Below, piece by piece: positions 3,504 through 31,566 of a stretch of 32,000 nucleotides of DNA. The notes beneath the pieces were generated by a model. It worked only from the letters and a program-made list of their open reading frames with translations. It was not told where the DNA came from and did not search any database. Positions within the stretch are counted from its first letter, which is position 1; every line of letters begins with the position of its first letter. Where the stretch lies: assembly GCF_003284895.1 (NCBI RefSeq), contig NZ_QMDV01000002.1:805466-837465 (forward strand), read 5' to 3'. Origin of the DNA: Pontibacter arcticus. Its GTDB lineage: Bacteria; Bacteroidota; Bacteroidia; Cytophagales; Hymenobacteraceae. A program made the position numbers and the translations under genes.

Positions 3504-3521
3504 AAGTAAAACGTATAAAAA

Positions 3522-3551
3522 AGCCGCTGTAAAAATTACAGCGGCTTTTTT
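3522..3551. terminator. Bidirectional intrinsic terminator between convergent smc and the yjbR-like gene
   Basis: Perfect 9-bp stem agccgctgt (3522-3530) / acagcggct (3538-3546) with a 7-nt loop. An A-run lies upstream (3514-3521) and a T-run downstream (3547-3551). Confidence 0.8.
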
Positions 3552-3565
3552 ATACTTCAATAGCT

Positions 3566-6285: not shown

Positions 6286-6337
6286 AAGTTAAAAAGTATA
6301 GAAGTTAAAACTTTCTAACTTCTATACTTTTTAACTT
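6286..6337 (-). terminator. 22-bp perfect AT-rich hairpin immediately after the accA stop codon
   Basis: aagttaaaaagtatagaagtta (6286-6307) is the exact reverse complement of 6316-6337, with an 8-nt loop. It starts 2 nt after the accA stop (6339-6341). There is no clear U-tract on the minus strand. Confidence 0.55.
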
Positions 6338-7499: not shown

Positions 7500-7573
7500 G
7501 GTCCGGTAGTTCAGTTGGTTAGAATGCCGCCCTGTCACGGCGGAGGTCGCGGGTTCGAGTCCCGTCCGGACCG
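7500..7573 (+). tRNA. tRNA-Asp (anticodon GTC), copy 1
   Basis: The cloverleaf can be read directly: acceptor GGTCCGG/CCGGACC, anticodon stem CCGCC/GGCGG, loop CTGTCAC, T-arm GCGGG-TTCGAGT-CCCGT, discriminator G. It closely resembles canonical bacterial tRNA-Asp. CCA is not encoded. Confidence 0.95.
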
Positions 7574-7630
7574 CAGATTATTCTGCGGTCATATCGTAAA
7601 AAGAGCAACAGGCTCTTATCTTAAAAATTT

Positions 7631-7704
7631 TGGTCCGGTAGTTCAGTTGGTTAGAATGCCGCCCTGTCACGGCGGAGGTCGCGGGTTCGAGTCCCGTCCG
7701 GACC
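7631..7704 (+). tRNA. tRNA-Asp (anticodon GTC), copy 2
   Basis: 77 nt (7631-7707) are identical to 7500-7576, giving a 131-bp tandem period. Confidence 0.95.
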
Positions 7705-7708
7705 GCAA

Positions 7709-7876: not shown

Positions 7877-8024
7877 GATGTATTCTTTAAATTTAAGAGT
7901 GCTAATAGTCCCTTCAATAGGCTAACATTTAGTTATTGTGAAAACACCAAAAACTAAATGCCTGGTCAAAGTATAAAAATCTTAAAACTATACTTTAATA
8001 CTTTGGACAATGCACTCTAAAAGT

Positions 8025-8057
8025 AAAAGGCCAGGCATTTAACATACCTGGCCTTTT
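8025..8057. terminator. Bidirectional terminator hairpin downstream of the last gene of the polysaccharide locus
   Basis: ggccagg (8029-8035) / cctggcc (8047-8053) with an 11-nt loop, flanked by aaaa (8025-8028) and tttt (8054-8057). It lies 23 nt beyond the dehydrogenase stop codon. Confidence 0.7.
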
Positions 8058-8079
8058 ACTTTTTATATTTAACTAACTA

Positions 8080-9405
8080 TTACAATCTACCGTCTACCAT
8101 TTCTCTGTCGAGGCAGGCTTTGGTATCAAAAATAACGGCGTTGTTATTGTCTTTATACTTTTTGAAATCTACCTTCTGGAACTCGTTATGCGCTACAGCT
8201 ACAATGATGGCAGTATACGGTACGGTTTCATCCAGTTCAGGTATAATGTCGATGCCATACTCATGCTTCACCTCATCAGCATCCGCCCATGGGTCGTAAA
8301 CATCTACATCCATACCAAATTGCTTTAGCTCATGGTAAATATCCACTACACGGGTGTTACGCACATCAGGGCAATTCTCTTTAAACGTAACCCCCATAAT
8401 GAGCGCCTTAGCACCTTTGATTTTGTGCTCTTTGTTGATCATGAGCTTCACTACTTTGTTAGCTACAAATGACCCCATGTTATCATTTACTCTTCGGCCA
8501 GAAAGTATAACCTGCGGATGGTAGCCTAATGCTTCCGCTTTGTGCGCCAGGTAATATGGATCCACGCCAATGCAATGTCCGCCTACAAGGCCGGGCTGGT
8601 ACTTCAGGAAGTTCCATTTGGTGCCGGCTGCGTCCAATACATCGTGCGTATCGATTCCGATCTTATCAAAGATCAGGGAAAGCTCATTTACAAATGAAAT
8701 GTTTACGTCGCGCTGTGCATTTTCAATCGCTTTAGAGGCTTCCGCCACTTTTATACTTGGTGCTTTGTGCGTGCCTGCTTCAATAATGCTACGGTACAGG
8801 TCATCCACACGCGTTGCAATTTCTGGCGTAGAGCCGCTGGTAACTTTCTTGATCTTGGTCAGGGTGTTTACTTTATCGCCCGGGTTGATGCGCTCCGGAG
8901 AATAGCCGGCATAAAAATCCTGGTTAAAAGTAAGACCAGAGAATTTTTCCAGTACAGGTACACAATCTTCTTCCGTACAGCCCGGGTAAACCGTAGATTC
9001 ATAAATTACAATGTCCCCTTTTTTAAGGACAGAACCCAGCATTTCTGAAGCTTTTAGCAACGGAAGCAGATCCGGCGCTTTAAACTGATCGATGGGCGTT
9101 GGAACCGTTACAATGAATGTATTATACTTGCGTAGTTCTTCTTTATCAGCTGAAAAATGCAGTCCCAGTTTATTTTCTCCGCTTTCATTTCTTTTGGAAA
9201 TTACGAGTTGAAGGTCCTCAAGATTAGCTTCGCGCGTACGGTCTTTCGCTTCGCTGAGCTCCTGAACACGATCTGTATTGATATCGAATCCAAGTACATC
9301 ATATTTCTTACCGAATTCGATGGCCAAAGGAAGGCCTACATAACCTAAACCAATAATAGCGATCTTTGCGTCTTCTACTAAAATATTATTCCCGGTAGTA
9401 TTCAT
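8080..9405 (-). CDS. Nucleotide-sugar dehydrogenase, TviB/WbpO/CapL-like (probable UDP-N-acetylhexosamine 6-dehydrogenase)
   Basis: 441 aa with an N-terminal Rossmann motif [14 protein letters not shown] and the catalytic Cys context [12 protein letters not shown], typical of the UDP-HexNAc dehydrogenase branch of the UDP-glucose/GDP-mannose dehydrogenase family. Confidence 0.85.
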
Positions 9406-9428
9406 TTTATGCTTACTATAATTTATGG

Positions 9429-9436
9429 CAAAATTA
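9429..9436 (-). promoter_or_regulatory. Candidate -7 box (TAatTTTG on the minus strand) upstream of the dehydrogenase gene
   Basis: Plus strand caaaatta equals minus strand TAATTTTG. It lies 24 nt upstream of the ATG at 9405 and abuts the stop codon of the upstream GT2 gene. Confidence 0.3.
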
Positions 9437-10180
9437 CTAAAAAAACTGACTTATTTTTCTGAGTGGCTTTAAAAACCGGGTGTAAAAGCGTGGTTGCAGC
9501 TTATTAATTACCCATGCCTGATAATCTTCTTTGTTTGCTCTGATTCTGTTCTTAAGCGTGACATTACTTTTACCTCCCACCCGCATTCTAACCAAATACT
9601 CAGGCAGATAGGCTGTGCTGATCTTATGCTTATACAGATAACGTAACATGAGTTCGTAATCTGCCGCACTCTTGAAAGTTGTATTATAAAGGCCCAGCTT
9701 CTGGTAAATCTCTTTTTTTACATAGAAAGTGGGGTGAGGCGGCATCCAGCCATTTTTAAAGCTGCTGTGCCTGTACTCTCCTGACTTCCAGTTTCGGATA
9801 ACCTTATCCGGGTTCTGTCTGTCAACATAAACCAGGTCGGCATAAATACTATTGGTCTTATTCTGAGCGAACGCCTCTACTACAGAAGCCACGGCATTAT
9901 CGTTGTAGAAAATATCATCCGAGTGCAGAAAACCGATCACATCGCCGGTAGCCAGCCGGACACCTTTGTTCAGGGCATCGTATAAACCGGCATCTTTCTC
10001 AGATACAAATGTGCTGATTCTATCTCCATAGCCTTTAATAATATCAATAGTGCCGTCCTTAGAAAGGCCATCCACTACAATGTATTCAATATTAGGGTAC
10101 GTTTGCGCCAGCACAGAATCTATGGCATCAGCAATCGTATCACGGTTATTATAAACGATGGTAATGATAGAAACTTTCAC
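9437..10180 (-). CDS. Glycosyltransferase family 2
   Basis: 247 aa with the GT-A N-terminus [41 protein letters not shown] and a DxD-like HSDD. It is similar in size to WcaE-type GT2 enzymes. GTG start. Confidence 0.85.
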
Positions 10181-13975: not shown

Positions 13976-15028
13976 TTAGACCAGTGCCATCAGTTTGGCT
14001 GCCCATTTAGAGGGTGTATTCTGTAGGGCTAACTCCACGCTTTTCTGTCCCATCTGGTAAAGCGCTTTACCGGGTAAATTCATGATGTTTGCCATCCCCT
14101 GTTTTAATGCAGGTATGTTACCGGCCTCAAACGTATAGCCATTTACGCCATTTTCAAGAAAAGCTGTAGCTGCGCCTACTTCCCGGCTGCATAACAATGG
14201 AAAGCCGGCTGCAGCAAACTCGTGTACCACCACACCCCAAGGTTCGTAAAAGGAGGGCAAAACGAAAACCCCTGCTTCCTGTATATACCGGCGCATTTCC
14301 TGAGGCTGCACAAAGCCAATATGTTTTATTTTAGGATGTTTCGTTGCGTTGCTTTCCAATGGGCCCGTGCCTAAGCACCACAATTCCCATTCGTTTGGCT
14401 TTTCTTCCTGCAACTGTACAAAAGCCTCCCACATGGTGTCAATACCTTTCTGAGGAATATAGCGTCCTACATAAATAAACCGCTTTGGAAAGTTTTGCTC
14501 CTTTAGAGCCTCAACTTCTTTTCCTGCTTTCCGGAATAAGTCTACATCAGCAGCATAATACCCTGATACTATCTTATTTTCTGGAAAGCCTAGTTTCCGG
14601 GCATATTTTTGTTGCGGAAGACCAGCAACAAACGCGTGTGTAAAGAGGCGTTGTAACGTAAAAGGCGCCACCAGACGAGCTATCTGTTGCTTCGCTGTAC
14701 CGAACCAATGGTTATCCATTCCTACCAAAACAGGGATACGCTTCCTGAAAGAACGCACAACGGCCAGGTAATCTTTATCGATCCAGCCACTGCAGAATAC
14801 CAACAAAGGTTGAATATCCTGACACAAACTAACCAGTTGTTCCCGGGTATAGTCCTGTTTCTCGTATAAGTTTATGTTTTCTGGAATTTCGAACTTAAAG
14901 GGCGCTTCTTTATTAACAGGCCAGCGTATAATATGAACTTCTGCCTGATGTTCTGCAGCAAGTGCCTTTACACAGGCCAGAAAATATTCAGCCAGTTCAG
15001 TGTATAAGAAAAGGATTTTTGGTTTCAT
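13976..15028 (-). CDS. Glycosyltransferase family 4 (GT-B)
   Basis: 350 aa with the E-x7-E motif (YEPWGVVVHEFAAAGFPLL). Confidence 0.8.
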   Translation of the reverse strand: MKPKILFLYTELAEYFLACVKALAAEHQAEVHIIRWPVNKEAPFKFEIPENINLYEKQDYTREQLVSLCQDIQPLLVFCSGWIDKDYLAVVRSFRKRIPVLVGMDNHWFGTAKQQIARLVAPFTLQRLFTHAFVAGLPQQKYARKLGFPENKIVSGYYAADVDLFRKAGKEVEALKEQNFPKRFIYVGRYIPQKGIDTMWEAFVQLQEEKPNEWELWCLGTGPLESNATKHPKIKHIGFVQPQEMRRYIQEAGVFVLPSFYEPWGVVVHEFAAAGFPLLCSREVGAATAFLENGVNGYTFEAGNIPALKQGMANIMNLPGKALYQMGQKSVELALQNTPSKWAAKLMALV

Positions 15029-15076: not shown

Positions 15077-16477
15077 CTAAGACCGAAGAACAGGAAATGG
15101 CGCAGTTGCTTTGGGGTTGGCTTTTAAAACGGGCCCTGCTGGCTTATCTTTTACAATATAGATCAGGAGCGTCAGGATCATAAGCACTTGTATGGTAAAC
15201 GGATTTAGAGAGGCCACCAACCAGGACTCTACCATATTAGAAGTAATAAGGGCAAAAGCTATGGGCAATGCCATATAAGAGTTTTTAGCTGCTTTGAAAA
15301 ATAAAAATCCCCAACCAATAATAAATAACAGTAATCCAATTAAACCAGTATCCAGCCATACTGTTAAAAAAGCATTATGCGCATTTCCTTCATGCCCGCG
15401 CAGACTCAGTTCCCAATAATTTTGCCTGTAGATCCATTCGGTATAGCTAAAGCCACGCCCCACCCAAAAGTTCTTTTGTATCTGCTCCCAGGCAAATTCA
15501 CGGGCTACTACCCTGCCACCACCTGCGTCCAACGTATCTACACGCAGATACTCCTCAAAACCTAAAGCCTGCGCAATGGCTACGATATCCAAATCAATAC
15601 TAACCAGCATGATGCCTAAAAATGCACTAAGTACCAAGCCAACAATCTGATTTCTTTTTGATAGATATTGCGTTATCAGAAAAATTAAGACAGATAAAGA
15701 TTGGCCGCGAGAACCGCTCCAAAGCAGCGAAGAAATAATAAGCGCAAAAATAACGATGTTCTCCCGTTTAGAAAACAGCGTCGGAAAATAGTGCCGGATA
15801 ACAAAGTATAACAAAAAGAATAAAAAGCAAAACATCCCCAAACCATTCGGGTTACCTAATGCGCCAGAAGAACGGCCGCCTTCGTTGTACATCACAAGCA
15901 TCGGGTTAGCCAGGTACATCAGATAACCGGCTATGAGCACAGCTACGCCCAGATAAATAATAGCTTTTAAAAAATAGGTATGGTAAGTTATATAAAGACT
16001 ATAGAACAGAATAGGTATGATAATAAAGAGCAGTGAATAGGAAAGTGTTTTTTGAAAAGCTGTAAAGGGTTCAGGGCTAAAGACAATGCAGAAGAATGCA
16101 AATAAACTAAACGCTAGCAAAGGCTGCACAAGTGACTTTGTATTATCCACCCACAGTGTACTTCTTCTATTAAAAAGCAAAGGCACCAAAAGCAGAAGCA
16201 TCATGACCGTCTTCAGATTTTGTGAAAAAGACAATGCATATATCCGGCTGTCTGAAAGGATAAGCGTAAAAAAGAAAACAATAAACAAGTATAAGTGCCG
16301 ACCTTTATTCTGCAAATACAGGGCGAATAAAGCTAATAAAGGAATTGCGACAACACCCAGGGCCATGCCTGTAACCAGCCAGCCAACAAGAAGCAAAAAC
16401 AGTTGTTTATAACTGGCTGCACTATAACCAGCTTCCGCTCGTGCCGATTCTATGTTATGTTCTTGATTTATTAACAA
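15077..16477 (-). CDS. O-antigen ligase / Wzy-type polymerase family membrane protein
   Basis: 466 aa, hydrophobic along almost its whole length with many predicted TM segments, and a Wzy_C-like region (LLWSGSRGQSLSVLIFLI). The ORF-track start is TTG and overlaps the upstream gene by 23 nt, so the true start is uncertain. Confidence 0.7.
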   Translation of the reverse strand: MLINQEHNIESARAEAGYSAASYKQLFLLLVGWLVTGMALGVVAIPLLALFALYLQNKGRHLYLFIVFFFTLILSDSRIYALSFSQNLKTVMMLLLLVPLLFNRRSTLWVDNTKSLVQPLLAFSLFAFFCIVFSPEPFTAFQKTLSYSLLFIIIPILFYSLYITYHTYFLKAIIYLGVAVLIAGYLMYLANPMLVMYNEGGRSSGALGNPNGLGMFCFLFFLLYFVIRHYFPTLFSKRENIVIFALIISSLLWSGSRGQSLSVLIFLITQYLSKRNQIVGLVLSAFLGIMLVSIDLDIVAIAQALGFEEYLRVDTLDAGGGRVVAREFAWEQIQKNFWVGRGFSYTEWIYRQNYWELSLRGHEGNAHNAFLTVWLDTGLIGLLLFIIGWGFLFFKAAKNSYMALPIAFALITSNMVESWLVASLNPFTIQVLMILTLLIYIVKDKPAGPVLKANPKATAPFPVLRS

Positions 16478-17603
16478 TGGATTTAATTGTTTCTATTGTC
16501 GTGCTTATAACCGAATCCCAGGTATAAGAATTCTTAACTAACTGTAAAGCTGCCTCTTGCTTCTGTGCTAGTTCTTCCCCATCTATACTGATAGCTTTAA
16601 CTATCGCTTGCTGGAGTGCGCTTTTGTCGGCTGCCGGAATGAGCCAGCCTGTCTCAACAGATACAAGCGCGCTAACAGCGCCCACATCCGTAGCAATTAC
16701 TGCCAGACCGGAAGCCATCGCCTCTAATATCACCGTGGGCATTCCTTCTGAGTAGCTTGGGCATACCAACACATCACTTGTCTTTAGGATTGCTTTGATT
16801 TCCTGTTCATCTCTAATCAGGCCATGGTAATCAACCTCGTCGTACTTCAACTGCTTTTCAGCAGGTATAGGGCCAATAAAGCTAACCTTAAAATTATACT
16901 TTCCGGAAAGGTGCTTTATAACTTCCTGTAGTTCCTCTATGCCTTTGCGTCTTTCATAGCGCCCGATAAATACAAATTTCCTGATTTTATTTGCCTTTAC
17001 CAACTGGCTTTGCTCTAACCAATGTGGCTCAATACCGATTGGGATTTCCAGAATTTGCTTTGTTGTAATACGCCTTTGAATGGGTGTTAATTTGCCTCCA
17101 AGTGAAAATACATAATCAGTATTATGTAGTATATACTTTACAGGCGGACCAAACAAAAGATGCTGAAGCTTAACATTGAAGTTTGGCGCCTGCTGAAACA
17201 TTTCAACACCATGAAAATTGACGCCTATTGGTGGTAAAGCTTTGCCTTTCTTCTTTTCAATTATTGTTTTCCAGCCGGTAAAACCCTGTGCATACACAAA
17301 GTTTACGGGTTCATTTTCTCTGAACAGTTGGTATACTTTTGCGGAATATAAATAAGATTCAACTACATAGTGCCCAGGCAGCTTTCTTGTAGACGGAAAT
17401 AATACATAATAAGGTGTTATATAAGAAAGCTCTTCTTCCGTAAAGTCTAATAACCGCGGTGTATCGGCATCTTTGCCTCCAGTGTGGTATAAATCTACAT
17501 ATACACCATTTCGCGCTAAATATTTAGCTAAATAGTAAGAGTGCTTTTGCATCCCGCCCAGCACATAAGGGTATATTCCGTCTGTTAGTAAGGCTATCCG
17601 CAT
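16455..17603 (-). CDS. Glycosyltransferase family 4 (GT-B), here called GT4b
   Basis: 382 aa with the E-x7-E motif (SEGMPTVILEAMASGLAVI). Its first 19 codons plus 16 nt upstream are duplicated at 19030-19102. Confidence 0.85.
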   Translation of the reverse strand: MRIALLTDGIYPYVLGGMQKHSYYLAKYLARNGVYVDLYHTGGKDADTPRLLDFTEEELSYITPYYVLFPSTRKLPGHYVVESYLYSAKVYQLFRENEPVNFVYAQGFTGWKTIIEKKKGKALPPIGVNFHGVEMFQQAPNFNVKLQHLLFGPPVKYILHNTDYVFSLGGKLTPIQRRITTKQILEIPIGIEPHWLEQSQLVKANKIRKFVFIGRYERRKGIEELQEVIKHLSGKYNFKVSFIGPIPAEKQLKYDEVDYHGLIRDEQEIKAILKTSDVLVCPSYSEGMPTVILEAMASGLAVIATDVGAVSALVSVETGWLIPAADKSALQQAIVKAISIDGEELAQKQEAALQLVKNSYTWDSVISTTIETIKSIVNKSRT

Positions 17604-17619
17604 GTAATAGAGCTAATCA
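17547..17619. repeat. 73-bp duplicated junction, functional copy (GT4b start region plus the GT2b stop codon)
   Basis: 67 of 73 positions are identical to 19030-19102 at a constant offset of 1483 bp with no indels. Confidence 0.9.
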
Positions 17620-18540
17620 ATGTTTAAATTTATAATATAGTGCCCAGAAATTTACTGGATTTAATACCTGAATTGCTATCTTTTTGAATAAAGAAAAATC
17701 TCCCTTCCAGATATTGTATCTTCCTTCGCTATGATACATTTTTTTGGTTTCTATAAATCCTGCATTTAAATATAACTCCTCTAATAAATAGAAAAACCGT
17801 GTCGTTAGTAATTTTTCATATTGCTTAAAGTTATTCTGCTCGAGCAAATGCTGCTTAATTTTACCCAAAAAAATAATAAGATTGGATTGTCTATCCTTTC
17901 TCATTGTTGTATTGGATATTGATTGGTCATGAACATTTTTTTCGAATAAGGGCTCGTTTAATTGAGCATGTTTGTATCCTTTCACTAATAACCTAAATAT
18001 TAGGTCTTTCTCCTGATTAGAATTAAGCAAAATATTAAACCCTCCTACATTCTCTAAAGCCTCTTTTTTAAAAAGAGCAGAACTGGTAATACCAATTGAA
18101 CCAGTTATTAATCCTTGCCAAGTATCTTTAAAATCTCTTTTACTATATCTTTTTTCACCATTTATGATTGCAAAGTTTTCAGCTGTGATAAAATCAATCT
18201 CATGATTTTGCTGAAAGAAGTTTACTTGTTTTTCAAGTTTAGAATTTATCAAGAAATCATCTGAATCCAAAAATTGAACATAATCGCCCTTGGCAATACT
18301 GAGTCCAGAATTTCGTGCATAAGGAGCTCCCTGCCTATTTTCAGTTAAAATTTTAATATCCCAATTATGCTGAACTTTTAAACTTTTGATTATATCCACT
18401 GAATTATCCTTTGAATTGTTATCTACACATATAACTTCAAAGTTATTGTAAGTCTGCTTAAAAACAGACTTTAGCATTTGCTCTAGGAACTGAGCGGAAT
18501 TGTATACAGGAATTATTACTGAAACTAGGGGAAACGACAT
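17617..18540 (-). CDS. Glycosyltransferase family 2, low-GC, here called GT2b
   Basis: It contains VSVIIPVYNSAQFLEQMLKSVFKQTYNNFEVICVDNNSKDNS and LDSDD, and is collinear with the GT2 at 20264-21193. The ATG at 18540 is preferred; the ORF track extends to a TTG at 18561. Confidence 0.85.
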   Translation of the reverse strand: MSFPLVSVIIPVYNSAQFLEQMLKSVFKQTYNNFEVICVDNNSKDNSVDIIKSLKVQHNWDIKILTENRQGAPYARNSGLSIAKGDYVQFLDSDDFLINSKLEKQVNFFQQNHEIDFITAENFAIINGEKRYSKRDFKDTWQGLITGSIGITSSALFKKEALENVGGFNILLNSNQEKDLIFRLLVKGYKHAQLNEPLFEKNVHDQSISNTTMRKDRQSNLIIFLGKIKQHLLEQNNFKQYEKLLTTRFFYLLEELYLNAGFIETKKMYHSEGRYNIWKGDFSLFKKIAIQVLNPVNFWALYYKFKH

Positions 18541-18895
18541 TTCTAATATTTTAAATTTCAATTTAAAAAATTTAAAAGTTACTAATTAAAAGTAAGCTTA
18601 TAAAACGTTAATATTCTTTGCTGTCAAATTCTGATGCTTTCCTAAATTAAAGTTCTCAATTCATTTTCTTTATTTATATAGCATATCATTTAGATCTAAT
18701 GCTTTAACATAAAGAATTATAAGCTACATCAATAATATGATTATATTAAACATTAGAGAAAAGTCGTCTATTCAGTAGAAATAATCACTTTTAAAGAAGC
18801 AATGGTTTAATTGTCTAATTTAACGGGTGATGAGTTACAGTCTAATATAGGCTGTTCCTTTAAAAGTATAAATTATTCTGCAATTACTAAGTGTA

Positions 18896-19015
18896 ATTTG
18901 ATATCATTTGGTATTACATATTGTATATATATTTGCTCCTAATTATTCTATTAAACGATAAAATTAATTCGACTTAATGACATAAGAATAAGAAATTTAA
19001 GATTTGATATCATTT
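18896..19015. repeat. Two 14-nt direct repeats (atttgatatcattt, core palindrome tgatatca) 106 bp apart in the AT-rich spacer
   Basis: 18896-18909 and 19002-19015 are identical. Confidence 0.6.
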
Positions 19016-19026
19016 AGGATAGGTGG

Positions 19027-19086
19027 CTATTGCATCCCACCCAGCACATAAGGATAAATCCCATCTGTTAGTAAGGCTATCCGCAA
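19027..19086 (-). pseudogene. Ghost 5' end of a GT4b-like gene (start ATG changed to TTG, 19 codons, then TAG)
   Basis: The minus strand reads ttg cgg ata gcc tta cta aca gat ggg att tat cct tat gtg ctg ggt ggg atg caa tag. After the first codon this encodes RIALLTDGIYPYVLGGMQ, identical to residues 2-19 of the gene at 16455-17603. Homology stops at the TAG. Confidence 0.8.
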
Positions 19087-19102
19087 GTAATAGAGCTAAT
19101 CA
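19030..19102. repeat. 73-bp duplicated junction, relic copy (overlaps the 3' end of the GT4 gene 19077-20267)
   Basis: See 17547-17619. The six differences are at 19039, 19054, 19057, 19060, 19063 and 19086. Confidence 0.9.
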
Positions 19103-20267
19103 CCTTTTCCGCATTCTTAACCCAGGTATAGTTCGTTAACACCAGGCGCTTAAAGGCATGGGCACAAGATTCCCTGAGCGATTTATTTTCAATGAATTGA
19201 TTTAAGGCAGTTTTTAAGCTATCTACATCAGGCTGAATCAATAATCCTGTGATTTGATCATGCATTACATCTTTTACCGGAATATTATCTGGAGCAATTA
19301 CAGCTTTGCCCATCGCTGCATATTCAAATATTTTAACAGGAGAGCCATACCAGTTAGAAGTTGGCATTACACAGATATCCATACAGGCAATATAATTAAA
19401 TACATCCTGATGCTTAATGTTGCCGGTAAAGGTAATAACATCCTGCAGCTGCTCCTGTTGAACCAGATTTTTTAAGAGCGGTAAAGTTTCTCCATCCCCA
19501 ACAATAAGTAAATGCAGCGATGAATCTGAAGCTGATATTGTCTTAAATGCTTTTATCAGTAAATCTATTCCATGCCAGGGAAAAATGGAACCTACAAAGC
19601 CTATAACAGTTTTATGCGTAATTTTTAACGCTTCTTTTATATCTGAGGCCCTGTTAAGAGAGTAATTAATATGGGCAGGATTGATGGCATTCGGAGTTAA
19701 AATAAATTTATCAGCCTCAATGTGGTAAGTTGTTGACAAGTGCTTTTGAAGTGCACTCGATACAACAGCAATTTTAGTACTTCCTTTTAAAAGCTTTTTT
19801 TCTATCTCTACCCCTTTGCCTGCATAAAAGCTGTTCCCCTGCATCTGTACTCTTTCTTCAGCATATGGTGCATTAACTTCCAATACGTGCTGTATACGGT
19901 GCTTAACAGCGGCTTCAACGCCAGATGTCTGCAAATAAGCTGCCCTTTCATAAATTAAGTCAGGCTGAAATTGCTGTATTTCTTCTTCCAGAATTTCAGC
20001 AGCATATTTATCAAATTTAAGTAATTGATGATCTTTGGCTGTTTCCCATATAAAAGAAGGCACCATCGAAGCAGCCATTTGCTTTAAAGGGCTTCTGCCT
20101 TTTATACTCAGATCGCCTTCGTTTATAGTGGTACCCCCCATTATAACCGGTTTTACGTCATGGCCTAGTTGCCCAAAAGCATGTATCATTTCACGTATGT
20201 GCGTGCCATAACCTGCAGGACTAGCTAAATTGAGATGTGGATGTGAGGAGTAATAAAGGATTTTCAT
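19077..20267 (-). CDS. Glycosyltransferase family 4 (GT-B), here called GT4a
   Basis: 396 aa with a GT-B C-terminal motif region (GSPVKIFEYAAMGKAVIAPDN). Its ATG overlaps the upstream stop codon (ATGA). Confidence 0.8.
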   Translation of the reverse strand: MKILYYSSHPHLNLASPAGYGTHIREMIHAFGQLGHDVKPVIMGGTTINEGDLSIKGRSPLKQMAASMVPSFIWETAKDHQLLKFDKYAAEILEEEIQQFQPDLIYERAAYLQTSGVEAAVKHRIQHVLEVNAPYAEERVQMQGNSFYAGKGVEIEKKLLKGSTKIAVVSSALQKHLSTTYHIEADKFILTPNAINPAHINYSLNRASDIKEALKITHKTVIGFVGSIFPWHGIDLLIKAFKTISASDSSLHLLIVGDGETLPLLKNLVQQEQLQDVITFTGNIKHQDVFNYIACMDICVMPTSNWYGSPVKIFEYAAMGKAVIAPDNIPVKDVMHDQITGLLIQPDVDSLKTALNQFIENKSLRESCAHAFKRLVLTNYTWVKNAEKVISSITCG

Positions 20268-21193
20268 TTAATTAATTTCCTTAAAAAGTCTTTACCTGCT
20301 TCTGTATACTTAAAACCTATTAAGGAATAACTTATAAGATAGAATTTACCGGTTATAGCAGTTAAACCGGGTTTAAAACCAGCAGGTATAAGCTCATTGT
20401 ATAATGCGATTCCCAGTCCAGCATCATAGGTATAAACTTCTCTTATTTTATTGAAGATAATCTGCAGAATAGCGTTTACCACCTTACTATCATACTTTAT
20501 CTTAACTAGGTAAGTATAGATCGTGTGCCTTAACCTGATATAGCGTTCCAGATTACTGGTTATATTTAATTGAGAAATCGAACCCGATGCCCGTTCACGT
20601 ATAACAGTTAGTGGTTTACCATCAAAAAACACGATAGCTCCACGCTGCAACAACCTGAACATCAAATCTGTTTCCTGGCTGCTTTGTAAAGCCTCATTCC
20701 AGCCACCTGCCCGCAACGCAGCATCTATCCGGAATAAATTAGCAGAAGTTATTCCCAGCTTGTTTGCACATAATGCAAACCATACATCTTCCTGCTTAAC
20801 AATACTCTCTTGCCGGATGCCGCCCAAACTTAATTTAATAGAGCTAGCCGCAATAAAACTGATATCTGCATTGGAGAGAATCAAAGCAACCTGGTGCGCA
20901 ATTTTCCCCGGTTCCAGCAAATCATCCGCGTCCAGAAATTGTACCCATTCCCCATTTGCTAATTGTAAACCTTTATTGCGCGCTGCATTTGCGCCTTTTT
21001 TAGTCTCAGTACAAAGTATAAGCTGCGGATACTTTTCCTGAAGAGTAAGTAACACGCTAGCAGTACCGTCTGTTGAGTTATTATCAATACAGATAACTTC
21101 TATACTTGGGTAAGTTTGCTTATAAACGCTTGCCAGGCAGTCTTCAATGTACGCCTCAACATTATAACAAGGTATCAGGACAGAGACCAGCAT
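20264..21193 (-). CDS. Glycosyltransferase family 2, here called GT2a
   Basis: 309 aa containing VSVLIPCYNVEAYIEDCLASVYKQTYPSIEVICIDNNSTDGT and LDADD. Confidence 0.85.
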   Translation of the reverse strand: MLVSVLIPCYNVEAYIEDCLASVYKQTYPSIEVICIDNNSTDGTASVLLTLQEKYPQLILCTETKKGANAARNKGLQLANGEWVQFLDADDLLEPGKIAHQVALILSNADISFIAASSIKLSLGGIRQESIVKQEDVWFALCANKLGITSANLFRIDAALRAGGWNEALQSSQETDLMFRLLQRGAIVFFDGKPLTVIRERASGSISQLNITSNLERYIRLRHTIYTYLVKIKYDSKVVNAILQIIFNKIREVYTYDAGLGIALYNELIPAGFKPGLTAITGKFYLISYSLIGFKYTEAGKDFLRKLIK

Positions 21194-22034: not shown

Positions 22035-22952
22035 TTATTTTAATTTAAATGAATGGTAAACTCCTCGGTAAAAATGAAGATTAAGGTAGGATCCGGCTAA
22101 TTTCTTTTTTGAAAAAGTAAATAAATTTAATAGTAGAAACAGCACCTCTTTCAGAACAACTCTGGTAAACATAACTGGCGTAAAAAAACTTTTACTCTTT
22201 AAACCAGCACTAATTCCTGCCTTAAATTTTCTGTTTATTAACCAGTTAAATGTAGCTCTTTCTTTGGGCACGTAATGCCATACTTTTGCATCTTCTACAT
22301 ACCAAGGATTTATGCCCAGATTATCTAGCCTTACCATCATATCATGCTCCTGCCCGGTTGCACCGGTTGCAGAGTTAGGCCCAAAATTGATGTCAAAACC
22401 ACCTGCTTTTTTTAGTTGTGAGCTATGAGCTGCCCAGTTGAATCCTATTAAATCGATGGGTGACAGTTTTTTGTTTTTTGCTTTTTCCCAGCCACTTGCT
22501 GAAACAGGCATAAAGTCTATATAGTAAGGCTCAGGGCGTAGCTCGTAGTCTACTTGATAAGGCCCTCCGTAAAAATAATCAAGCCCATACTCCTCAAAAG
22601 CAGAAGCGTAAGCTGTAATTACTTCAGGAGATACCCTGATATCGTCATCAAAGAAAATAATAAAAATATCATTCTCTATTGTATCCAGTGCTTTGTTAAG
22701 GGCATCGCTTTTATTAGCCTGTGCACTGTATTGATATTCGCAACCAATGTTTTTATACTTACTGCATACAATTTCAGCATCACCTTTCTCCCCATTTTCA
22801 ATAACAATGGTTTTTAGATAGTTTGACGGAAAAACGCATTTGCTTAAACTTTCTAAAGTTCTGTTAAGCAGAGAACCCCTGCCATAAGTTGGTATGACAA
22901 TGATAATACTATCTTTTTTATTTAAAGTCTCGGACCTCATACTTCCAGTCAC
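22035..22952 (-). CDS. Glycosyltransferase family 2
   Basis: 305 aa containing IIVIPTYGRGSLLNRTLESL and FFDDDI. The ORF-track start is GTG at 22952, with an alternative ATG at 22940. Confidence 0.8.
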   Translation of the reverse strand: MTGSMRSETLNKKDSIIIVIPTYGRGSLLNRTLESLSKCVFPSNYLKTIVIENGEKGDAEIVCSKYKNIGCEYQYSAQANKSDALNKALDTIENDIFIIFFDDDIRVSPEVITAYASAFEEYGLDYFYGGPYQVDYELRPEPYYIDFMPVSASGWEKAKNKKLSPIDLIGFNWAAHSSQLKKAGGFDINFGPNSATGATGQEHDMMVRLDNLGINPWYVEDAKVWHYVPKERATFNWLINRKFKAGISAGLKSKSFFTPVMFTRVVLKEVLFLLLNLFTFSKKKLAGSYLNLHFYRGVYHSFKLK

Positions 22953-22992
22953 AATCTAAAATGGTAAACGAATTGCCAGAATCCAATTTCTA

Positions 22993-24162
22993 TTAAATTA
23001 TGTTCTTCGTCTTTGCTTCGTGCTTATCTACAATGGCTTGGATATCTTTTATAAATTTATCATTATTTGAGATATCATTCAGCTTATTATATAAAGCCCT
23101 GTTATGCATACAATCCGCTAAACTTAGTTGAAGCTTATTATTTTTTAAATCATCCTCTAACTGGCCTTCTATTGAAAAAATAATAAACCCCAAGTTTTTT
23201 AACCATTTTAAAGATGGGTTCTTGACAGATAGATATACCTTAACTCCATTTATCAATGAAATTAAGACATTCCCTAAGGCCATCTGCCTATAAGAATTGA
23301 AAACAGCAGTTGAACAATTACCAATTAAATTGACATACTCATTGAAAGGGATGAAATCTTCAAGAAGTTCATAAGGGTTAGGTAAACTCATTAAGTTACT
23401 TTTAAGCTCATTCCCATAAGTTTCATTCCCCGGTGTATAACTATAGGGTATTATCAGAGGAATTTTATTATTACTGGCTAATAATATATCTAATATATCA
23501 AGATGATTATTACTAGGTGAACGCGAATTACCTAATATGATTCCTGATTTCTTCGGTTTTGAAAGATCAACTTTCGGAACAGGTATAGTTAAAGGAAGAG
23601 CTAAGAACTCTGGCAAATAATGAACCTTCTTCTTTAACATTTTATATTCATTATAATCAAATGCTAAAAAGAAATTAACTCTTTTAATGGCTCTTTCACT
23701 AATCTTATCTTCAGTATTTCTAATTCTGCCCGTAAGAACATCCTTGATAGTAGCTTTTGTTTCAATATAATTAAGCTCAAGTTTTTTAAAGAATACATTT
23801 TTTATACCTAATGCTTTTTTTGTTAAGTCTGAGTATATATCATATCTATACTTTATCATATGATAGACTTCAGCACCAAAAAAATGCCATATAACTTTGA
23901 TATTAGGATCTAAACTGTTAATTAACTTCGCTTTAGTTAAGTCAAGGTGATAGATTATAACGCAATCAAATACCAAGGCCTTTTTCGCTAAAGCAGCTAG
24001 GCTTTCCGAAGTGGGTTTAATCCACTCAATGCTATTTATATATTTACCATTATAGGTAAATTCTTCTTTAAGAGAAACGATATGATTTTCGCAGGTGGTA
24101 TACCTTAATAAGTGACCATCAATAAATTTATCATCACTAACGACATGAAGTATTTTGAGCAT
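22993..24162 (-). CDS. WecF-like glycosyltransferase (GT56, TDP-Fuc4NAc:lipid II 4-alpha-N-acetylfucosaminyltransferase family)
   Basis: 389 aa with blocks collinear with my recollection of E. coli WecF. ILHVVSDDKF matches LIHVLGSDIP, VIWHFFGAEVY matches FFWHIWGADLY, IILGNSRSPSNNHLDIL matches ILVGNSGDRSNEHIAAL, and IPYSYTPGNETY matches VPMGYPPNNEAY. The comparison is from memory, not an alignment. Confidence 0.65.
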   Translation of the reverse strand: MLKILHVVSDDKFIDGHLLRYTTCENHIVSLKEEFTYNGKYINSIEWIKPTSESLAALAKKALVFDCVIIYHLDLTKAKLINSLDPNIKVIWHFFGAEVYHMIKYRYDIYSDLTKKALGIKNVFFKKLELNYIETKATIKDVLTGRIRNTEDKISERAIKRVNFFLAFDYNEYKMLKKKVHYLPEFLALPLTIPVPKVDLSKPKKSGIILGNSRSPSNNHLDILDILLASNNKIPLIIPYSYTPGNETYGNELKSNLMSLPNPYELLEDFIPFNEYVNLIGNCSTAVFNSYRQMALGNVLISLINGVKVYLSVKNPSLKWLKNLGFIIFSIEGQLEDDLKNNKLQLSLADCMHNRALYNKLNDISNNDKFIKDIQAIVDKHEAKTKNII

Positions 24163-24215
24163 TATTATACTGAAGATTAAATTAATGTTGAAGCTAATTC
24201 TACTTTCAAAGCGGC

Positions 24216-31494: not shown

Positions 31495-31533
31495 CGACTA
31501 GAATTTTATTTTATAACGTTAAACAGCTCCTTT

Positions 31534-31561
31534 ATGTCCTGCTTACTTCTAAGCAGGACAT
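31534..31561 (-). terminator. 12-bp perfect hairpin directly after the wzc-like stop codon
   Basis: atgtcctgctta (31534-31545) / taagcaggacat (31550-31561) with loop cttc. It begins 6 nt after the stop (31567-31569). There is no U-tract on the minus strand. Confidence 0.45.
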
Positions 31562-31566
31562 AAAAC

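Follow-up and report, generated by a model that had tools for sequence, protein, structure and literature searches.

Gene remnants at the junctions of gene clusters have been described in the galactose-initiated O-antigen groups of Salmonella (PMC3715488), and homology-facilitated illegitimate recombination (HFIR) has been proposed for the displacement of type VI secretion system (T6SS) effector-immunity modules in Vibrio cholerae, where orphan immunity genes and, in one case, the 3′ end of a displaced effector remain (PMC5361080). A scarred junction of this general kind is found inside a surface-polysaccharide gene cluster of Pontibacter arcticus, in a stretch of 32,000 nucleotides (contig NZ_QMDV01000002.1, positions 805,466 to 837,465) that is referred to here as the window. 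All genes of the junction region are carried by the minus strand, among them two family-4 glycosyltransferase (GT4) genes, GT4a and GT4b. The GT4a-GT4b junction is present twice, on either side of a 1.41-kb low-GC block that holds a decayed gene fragment, X′, and an intact family-2 glycosyltransferase (GT2) gene, GT2b, and we consider it highly probable that this arrangement is a recombination scar of a known kind, left when a junction of two polysaccharide genes was duplicated around the block.

A repeat search and a self-BLAST of the window both return a direct repeat at 17543-17619 and 19026-19102 (offset 1483, identity 70/77), one of only two direct repeats that the self-BLAST finds in the window. 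Its 73-nt core (Table 1), which a preceding sequence-only reading had aligned without gaps at 67 of 73 positions, was borne out by both searches, and a match of this quality at a given offset has a chance probability of about 1e-30. Each copy consists of the final 26 nt of GT4a, with the stop codon, and, overlapping them, the start codon and first 19 codons of GT4b. In copy 1 the GT4b start is an ATG (17603-17601), which is replaced in copy 2 by TTG (19086-19084), so that copy 2 holds a ghost GT4b start that translates as LRIALLTDGIYPYVLGGMQ and then runs into a TAG at 19029-19027. The five other differences (copy 1 positions 17580, 17577, 17574, 17571, and 17556) all fall on third codon positions and are synonymous (D, G, I, Y, G), and the change from ATG to TTG is itself silent in the frame of GT4a (ACA to ACT, both Thr). 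Codon-level comparison confirms all of these assignments as first read, including that copy 1 consists of the GT4b ATG, its first 19 codons and 16 nt upstream, and, the start codon apart, the computed alignment of the 73-nt core holds no nonsynonymous or indel difference. The end of the homology was likewise correctly placed where AAG meets TAG, though three further bases beyond this mismatch match again (AGC, 19026-19028; GCT).

The 16 nt 5′ of the ATG are identical between the copies and encode (V)ISSIT. The C-terminus of the intact GT4a, KVISSITCG before the stop, aligns with KVIGAIQ before the stop in P. silvestris and with LVLSAAV before the stop in a metagenomic locus, L081 (the compared loci carry L numbers), and therefore copy 1 holds a true relic of a GT4a tail. 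Since this relic lies directly before the GT4b start, GT4a must once have directly preceded GT4b. Judged from its codons, copy 2 in turn holds a true relic of a GT4b head, and what was duplicated is a GT4a/GT4b junction. Because the junction is present on both sides, GT4a retains its C-terminus and stop codon and GT4b its start, and a stop is supplied to GT2b; indeed, its TGA (17619-17617) is formed by the first 3 nt of copy 1, as the first reading had pointed out. The 1410 bp between the copies (17620-19029) divide, also as described before, into 921 nt of GT2b without its stop codon and a spacer of 489 nt. Homology is lacking at both joints of the block, apart from AGC at 19026-19028 and, if it was GT2b's own stop, possibly TGA at 17617-17619. 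Three relics are found at the scar, namely the GT4b start, the GT4a tail, and the fragment X′.

Table 1. Features of the duplicated junction and its surroundings (window positions).
Feature	Position	Strand	Content or evidence
Polysaccharide biosynthesis cluster	~8080-31094		Glycosyltransferases, Wzy, AsnB, UGDH, GMD, aminotransferase, ABC exporter; Pfam
Wzy-like polymerase/ligase	15077-16477	-	Pfam PF04932; 78% identical to L001; overlaps 3′ end of GT4b
GT4b, family-4 glycosyltransferase, 382 aa	16455-17603	-	Pfam
Repeat copy 1	17547-17619	-	GT4a tail relic, last 8 codons (17619-17594), and functional GT4b start, first 19 codons
GT2b, intact family-2 glycosyltransferase, 307 aa	17617-18540	-	Pfam PF00535, E 1.3e-34; 100% identical to P. 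arcticus protein P0121
AT-rich remainder of the spacer	18541-18776	-	Between X′ and the GT2b start
X′ pseudogene fragment	18777-19007	-	Residues ~239-317 of an uncharacterized family of ~375-390 aa; tblastx, tblastn, hidden Markov model
Repeat copy 2	19030-19102	-	Functional GT4a 3′ end (19102-19077) and ghost GT4b start, TTG at 19086, codons 1-19
GT4a, family-4 glycosyltransferase, 396 aa	19077-20267	-	Pfam; 100% identical to P. arcticus protein P0001
GT2a, family-2 glycosyltransferase	20264-21193	-	Open reading frame; Pfam PF00535, E 5.5e-33

The interpretation of the first reading is sound in outline but needs amending as to the spacer, the weight given to GC, and the relation of GT2b to GT2a. 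The spacer had been taken for an AT-rich upstream region that a GT2 cassette carried along, and in this point the first reading has to be replaced: most of the spacer is X′, a truncated and decayed gene fragment, and no promoter signal is conspicuous in it. On the gene strand, X′ aligns in a single frame with residues 239-315 of a 381-aa protein of Pontibacter sp. E15-1, with five in-frame stops and no frameshift. By tblastx the spacer matches locus L001 and 18 other loci, and in many of these the matching gene stands directly upstream of GT4b. A hidden Markov model (HMM) of this family X, with 22 members, scores 30.7 bits (E 7e-12) against the X′ frame and below 0 against the other five frames, and 300 dinucleotide shuffles reach at most 6.6 bits. 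X′ sets in no more than about 7 codons from the edge of the repeat, and its beginning probably coincides with the junction, at 19029. The identification of X′ means that the block is an X gene truncated at about residue 232 and decayed, followed by GT2b, rather than a GT2 gene that brought a promoter region along. Pfam offers no match for family X, whose WcaI-like (GT-B) similarity is weak. Its position is conserved: in many polysaccharide loci of the Bacteroidota, among them L001 (8850-9995) and about 20 others, the gene that normally stands next to GT4b on the upstream side is a member of this family.

The AT-rich remainder of the spacer shows no open reading frame (ORF), no Rfam match, no HMM match, and no detectable similarity; its length would accommodate the decayed last ~60 codons of X′ and a short intergenic gap. 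Scans of the spacer for Rfam families, promoters and terminators, and small ORFs gave no signal that stands out, sigma-70-like matches being fewer than in shuffles and the Bacteroidetes-type motif TAnnTTTG being absent from the gene strand. A miniature inverted-repeat transposable element or other mobile element was considered for the spacer and discarded, only weak AT-rich inverted repeats and one borderline direct repeat of 14-19 nt having been found. The latter, in its 19-nt form, is the exact repeat ATTTGATATCATTT with a palindromic core TGATATCA, present at 18896-18914 and 19002-19020, 106 nt apart, and one of its copies adjoins the boundary of the junction repeat. Its significance is borderline, with three matches in the window at up to 2 mismatches, a number that 6 of 100 shuffles reach.

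In contrast to the decayed X′, GT2b is full length, since in alignment its C-terminus lies at the natural end of its homologues and the residues invariant in the family are present. It follows that the downstream joint lies within a codon or two of the native stop. GT2b may be active, and in that case it may change the glycan through the added glycosyltransferase step, and with it the serotype, as the first reading proposed. Beyond P. arcticus its nearest homologues are 51-53% identical and occur in unrelated loci. It had been regarded as a collinear paralogue of GT2a; the two are indeed homologous (43% identity over the N-terminal 185 aa, E 1e-48), but 31% identity over the whole alignment makes them no close pair and GT2b no recent or local copy. 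As to base composition, computed GC values are 0.227 for the 489-nt spacer, 0.302 for GT2b, 0.386 for GT4a, 0.406 for GT4b, and 0.471 for smc, which the first reading had put at about 0.50. The block, at 0.227-0.302, is compositionally distinct from both flanks, at 0.386-0.406, which supports the first reading. Low GC does not, however, mark GT2b as foreign: a GT56-family gene of the same locus equals it at 0.30, and composition alone is therefore weak evidence of foreign origin. This GT56-family gene (22993-24162; GC 0.30, GC at third codon positions 0.27, as low as in GT2b) forms a second low-GC island in the locus, at ~22800-24200 in the sliding profile.

Some of the other species and loci with which the arrangement of P. 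arcticus was compared have the uninterrupted order. In P. silvestris (L085), GT4a (58% identical) and GT4b (60%) are directly adjacent with an ATGA overlap, and in five distant Bacteroidota loci (L035, L045, L062, L072, and L078) a GT4a-like and a GT4b-like gene are adjacent with gaps of 6-91 nt. Together with the GT4a tail relic in copy 1, these cases support an ancestral adjacency of overlapping GT4a and GT4b, as first proposed. GT4b is the first gene of a module kept among Pontibacter (GT4b-Wzy-GT4-AsnB and further genes). Its orthologues in Pontibacter loci are 75-57% identical, with downstream synteny kept, and much of the module GT4b-Wzy-GT4-AsnB-GT4-acetyltransferase-GT2-UGDH is found again, with its gene order kept and at ~60-80% amino acid identity, in four further Pontibacter species, although single Pontibacter loci lack some module genes or have far more divergent ones. 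All content 5′ of GT4b, on the other hand, varies among the Pontibacter loci compared, and therefore the start of GT4b is the border between the conserved and the variable part of the locus. Indeed, the metagenomic, Pontibacter-like locus L081 (GT4a 68% identical) carries a DUF6883 and DUF4926 gene pair (9236-9814) between its GT4a and GT4b orthologues; around this insert, which occupies the same junction, no duplication is present. In other loci, an acyltransferase, an epimerase, or other ORFs lie between X and GT4b. This suggests that the position just upstream of GT4b is a repeated exchange point. Moreover, codons 1-30 are the most nucleotide-conserved stretch of GT4b (~75% against ~50% elsewhere in the gene, 71 orthologues compared with the window), and short BLAST matches of the GT4b 5′ end, at 80-95%, extend even to distant taxa, so that this 5′ end may plausibly serve as a homology anchor.

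When the N-terminal 30 residues of GT4b were searched in 85 loci, a second copy appeared only in the window and in L005, from the cyanobacterium Calothrix sp. PCC 7103 (KB217478.1). The second Calothrix copy might have been a paralogue, which was ruled out when it turned out to be an independent relic, a ~170-nt remnant of the 5′ end of a GT4b orthologue (8602-8770) in which ATG has become ATT and codon 51 is a stop. There, a GT4 gene precedes the relic, and a GT2-like gene of 329 aa separates the relic from the intact orthologue, which lies 1399 nt further downstream, with a GC-rich hairpin region at 8780-8850 between relic and intact gene; no homology was found upstream of the relic's start codon. 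In codons 2-19 of this relic all 7 differences are synonymous, in contrast to 8 synonymous and 9 non-synonymous ones in codons 20-50, and the zero amino acid change in the invariant N-terminus has a p of about 0.005. The differences thus follow the conservation profile of the family, as expected of allelic rather than neutral divergence. A bolder generalization, which we rate as rather improbable, would be that the first ~60 nt of GT4b act as a landing pad across phyla (Bacteroidota and a cyanobacterium), where upstream accessory glycosyltransferase genes are swapped and leave ghost starts behind, and that the 73-bp repeats make GT2b excisable. If so, excision of GT2b would restore an intact GT4a-GT4b pair and provide a heritable switch between two glycan forms.

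For the mechanism and the order of events we infer the following scenario. The lineage would once have had GT4a and GT4b overlapping and directly adjacent. The 1.41-kb block may then have come from another polysaccharide locus of the same architectural type, contributing the 3′ part of an X-family gene, which was truncated at about residue 232 and has since decayed, followed by an intact GT2 gene. Its ends would be illegitimate joints, one linking codon 19/20 of GT4b to X′ and the other linking the last codon of GT2b to a point 16 nt 5′ of the GT4b ATG, and the unusually conserved GT4b 5′ end probably supplied homology. Two routes could lead to this structure. In a one-step route the fragment would have been captured with a 73-bp target duplication, allelic exchange following afterwards; in a two-step route X-GT2b would have replaced GT4a, leaving its 8-codon tail, and GT4a would have been re-acquired from an uninterrupted allele by way of a joint within X. 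Two illegitimate joints are required in both cases. On either route, the likely cause of the synonymous-only differences would be that at least one copy was exchanged by homologous recombination with a still-coding allele, at the event or later.

Several observations weigh against this scenario. A close relative of P. arcticus is not in the databases, the next-closest GT4a being 67% identical, and the junction sequence is absent from the metagenome contigs scanned, which leaves the uninterrupted allele and the timing of the event unobserved. An X-GT2b adjacency, as a donor-type locus would have it, occurs in none of 91 loci, including five contexts of GT2b homologues, and microhomology at the joints is minimal (AGC and possibly TGA). 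The synonymous-only argument, for its part, draws on five sites (p ~0.01-0.02). As read from the alignment, 77 codons of X′ contain 5 stops, and of 16 residues conserved in the family 10 are lost, while the adjacent GT4b relic has changed 0 of 18 residues; neutral decay of both at an equal pace since one event does not fit this difference, and the unequal decay (18777-19007 against 19030-19076) needs either a copy 2 that was refreshed later by an uninterrupted allele or an X fragment that was dead on arrival. Finally, the body of GT4b is closest to that of L001 (75%), whose upstream neighbour is X and not GT4a. Wzy is also closest to L001, AsnB shows about the same distance to each of the compared loci (72-76%), and for the GT4 gene at 13976 L001 is not the closest. 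Since GT4b and Wzy are closest to an X-type locus, the locus must be a finer mosaic than a single insertion would give.

These affinities with L001 invite the reverse polarity, in which X-GT2b-GT4b would be the resident arrangement and the newcomer, joined illegitimately inside X, would comprise GT2a and GT4a together with the initial 19 codons of a foreign GT4b, the ghost start being the end of the incoming DNA. X′ indeed belongs to exactly the family that natively precedes GT4b, it looks older than the GT4b relic, and differences of an allelic kind between the copies would follow directly. Copy 1 speaks against this polarity, because right after GT2b it has a genuine GT4a tail of 16 nt, followed by codons 1-7 of the A type: GT4a must have preceded the GT4b start before GT2b was joined to it, and the reverse polarity needs an extra patch or conversion to account for this. 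The GC of the block, lower than that of GT4b, is a further point against a resident block, and we regard the reverse polarity as unlikely, if deserving of attention.

A purely local event would dispense with a second allele altogether. A staggered break or template switching would have made two identical 73-bp copies, and the differences would have arisen in place. This is the simplest account of the identity of the 16-nt GT4a tail and of the unusual second codon CGG that both copies have in common, which shows the copies to be closely related; the informative sites are only five, and in three of the five differences C in copy 1 stands against T in copy 2, as AT-biased decay of a relic would have it. 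The nature of the differences, however, disfavours simple drift in place. About 27-30% of random substitutions in the 18 relic codons would be synonymous, so that five synonymous changes out of five have a p of 0.001-0.003 if the relic alone drifted, and of 0.013-0.023 in a mixture model that lets the constrained copy change synonymously too. All three C/T differences sit at third-position C's, which make up 4 of 27 G/C sites (hand count, p ~0.001). Nor does a local event explain why the neighbouring X′ is far more decayed than the GT4b relic, or why codons 2-19 of the Calothrix relic likewise show no amino acid change. The differences do not cluster significantly in codons 8-19 (p 0.09), and polarization of the five differences by outgroups met third positions too saturated to decide. 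The first reading had argued that purely synonymous divergence implies copies that evolved as coding DNA in different lineages; the improbability of in-place decay upholds that argument, although a diverged allele that took part in the insertion itself is not distinguishable from one that was exchanged later. On balance a purely local origin appears quite improbable.

Selection on the ghost start would also explain its unchanged amino acids, if it is kept for a function, either as a 19-aa peptide initiated from TTG, which can serve as a start codon, or as an element that affects GT4a termination or downstream expression. The lack of any amino acid change, over 18 codons here and over codons 2-19 in Calothrix, would agree with this. 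Yet both relics have lost the start codon (TTG in P. arcticus, ATT in Calothrix), all orthologues have nearly the same 19 N-terminal residues, so that an allelic origin explains the pattern equally well, and only two such relics exist among 85 loci; a retained function is accordingly given very little credence. A mobile element or site-specific insertion (transposon, integron cassette, or integrative element), with the repeat as target-site duplication or attachment site, would suit the direct repeats that flank the insert and the repeated hits at the same site in other genomes, but can be dismissed almost entirely, because the window ORFs of at least 100 aa scanned with Pfam include no transposase or integrase, convincing terminal inverted repeats are lacking and only weak AT-rich ones occur, a repeat of 73 bp that has diverged by 8% (92% identical) does not resemble a target-site duplication, a gene is cut at one end of the insert, and L081 inserts at the same site without a duplication.

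Elsewhere in the cluster, GT2a overlaps the start of GT4a by 4 nt and has orthologues with 50% identity in P. silvestris and 46% in P. harenae. The other direct repeat of the window consists of two identical tRNA-Asp (GTC) genes in tandem (7500-7574 and 7632-7706). Four near-perfect palindromes of 34-52 nt occur in intergenic positions (3513-3555, 6286-6337, 8019-8063, and 31531-31564) and are probably transcription terminators.

Compared with described systems, the locus resembles the O-antigen clusters of Salmonella in being a mosaic, in having a dead remnant between blocks of different origin and GC, and in a glycosyltransferase content changed by recombination. It differs in that the junction of two overlapping genes was duplicated and both neighbours are intact, in that no insertion sequence or H-repeat is found at the joint, and in that it belongs to a member of the Cytophagia, Pontibacter, known here from sequence alone. 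With HFIR and sequential displacement, as in the V. cholerae T6SS and in the orphan modules of Rhs and contact-dependent inhibition systems, it shares a conserved segment, here a candidate anchor, beside a variable region, a non-homologous joint at the other end, and orphan fragments left behind. The orientation is mirrored, however, since here the variable part lies upstream of the conserved one, and the role of the GT4b 5′ end as an anchor would follow here from its conservation only. An HFIR joint would be expected at ~3-10 nt of microhomology; the microhomologies here are of at most 3 nt. Given the 16-nt GT4a tail, the structure is not obtained by one HFIR step. Insertions by template switching or microhomology-mediated repair likewise capture foreign DNA, duplicate tens of bases of the target, and leave joints with little or no homology; unlike in those, the copies here are non-identical and their differences look allelic. 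Without implying a new mechanism, the junction is a well-documented addition to what is known from the O-antigen and capsule loci of pathogens, offering a base-pair view of how a polysaccharide locus of an environmental member of the Bacteroidota gained a glycosyltransferase gene without breaking two overlapping neighbours, and the other inserts found elsewhere, together with the independent look-alike scar in a cyanobacterium, suggest that exchange recurs at the boundary just 5′ of one very conserved glycosyltransferase gene.

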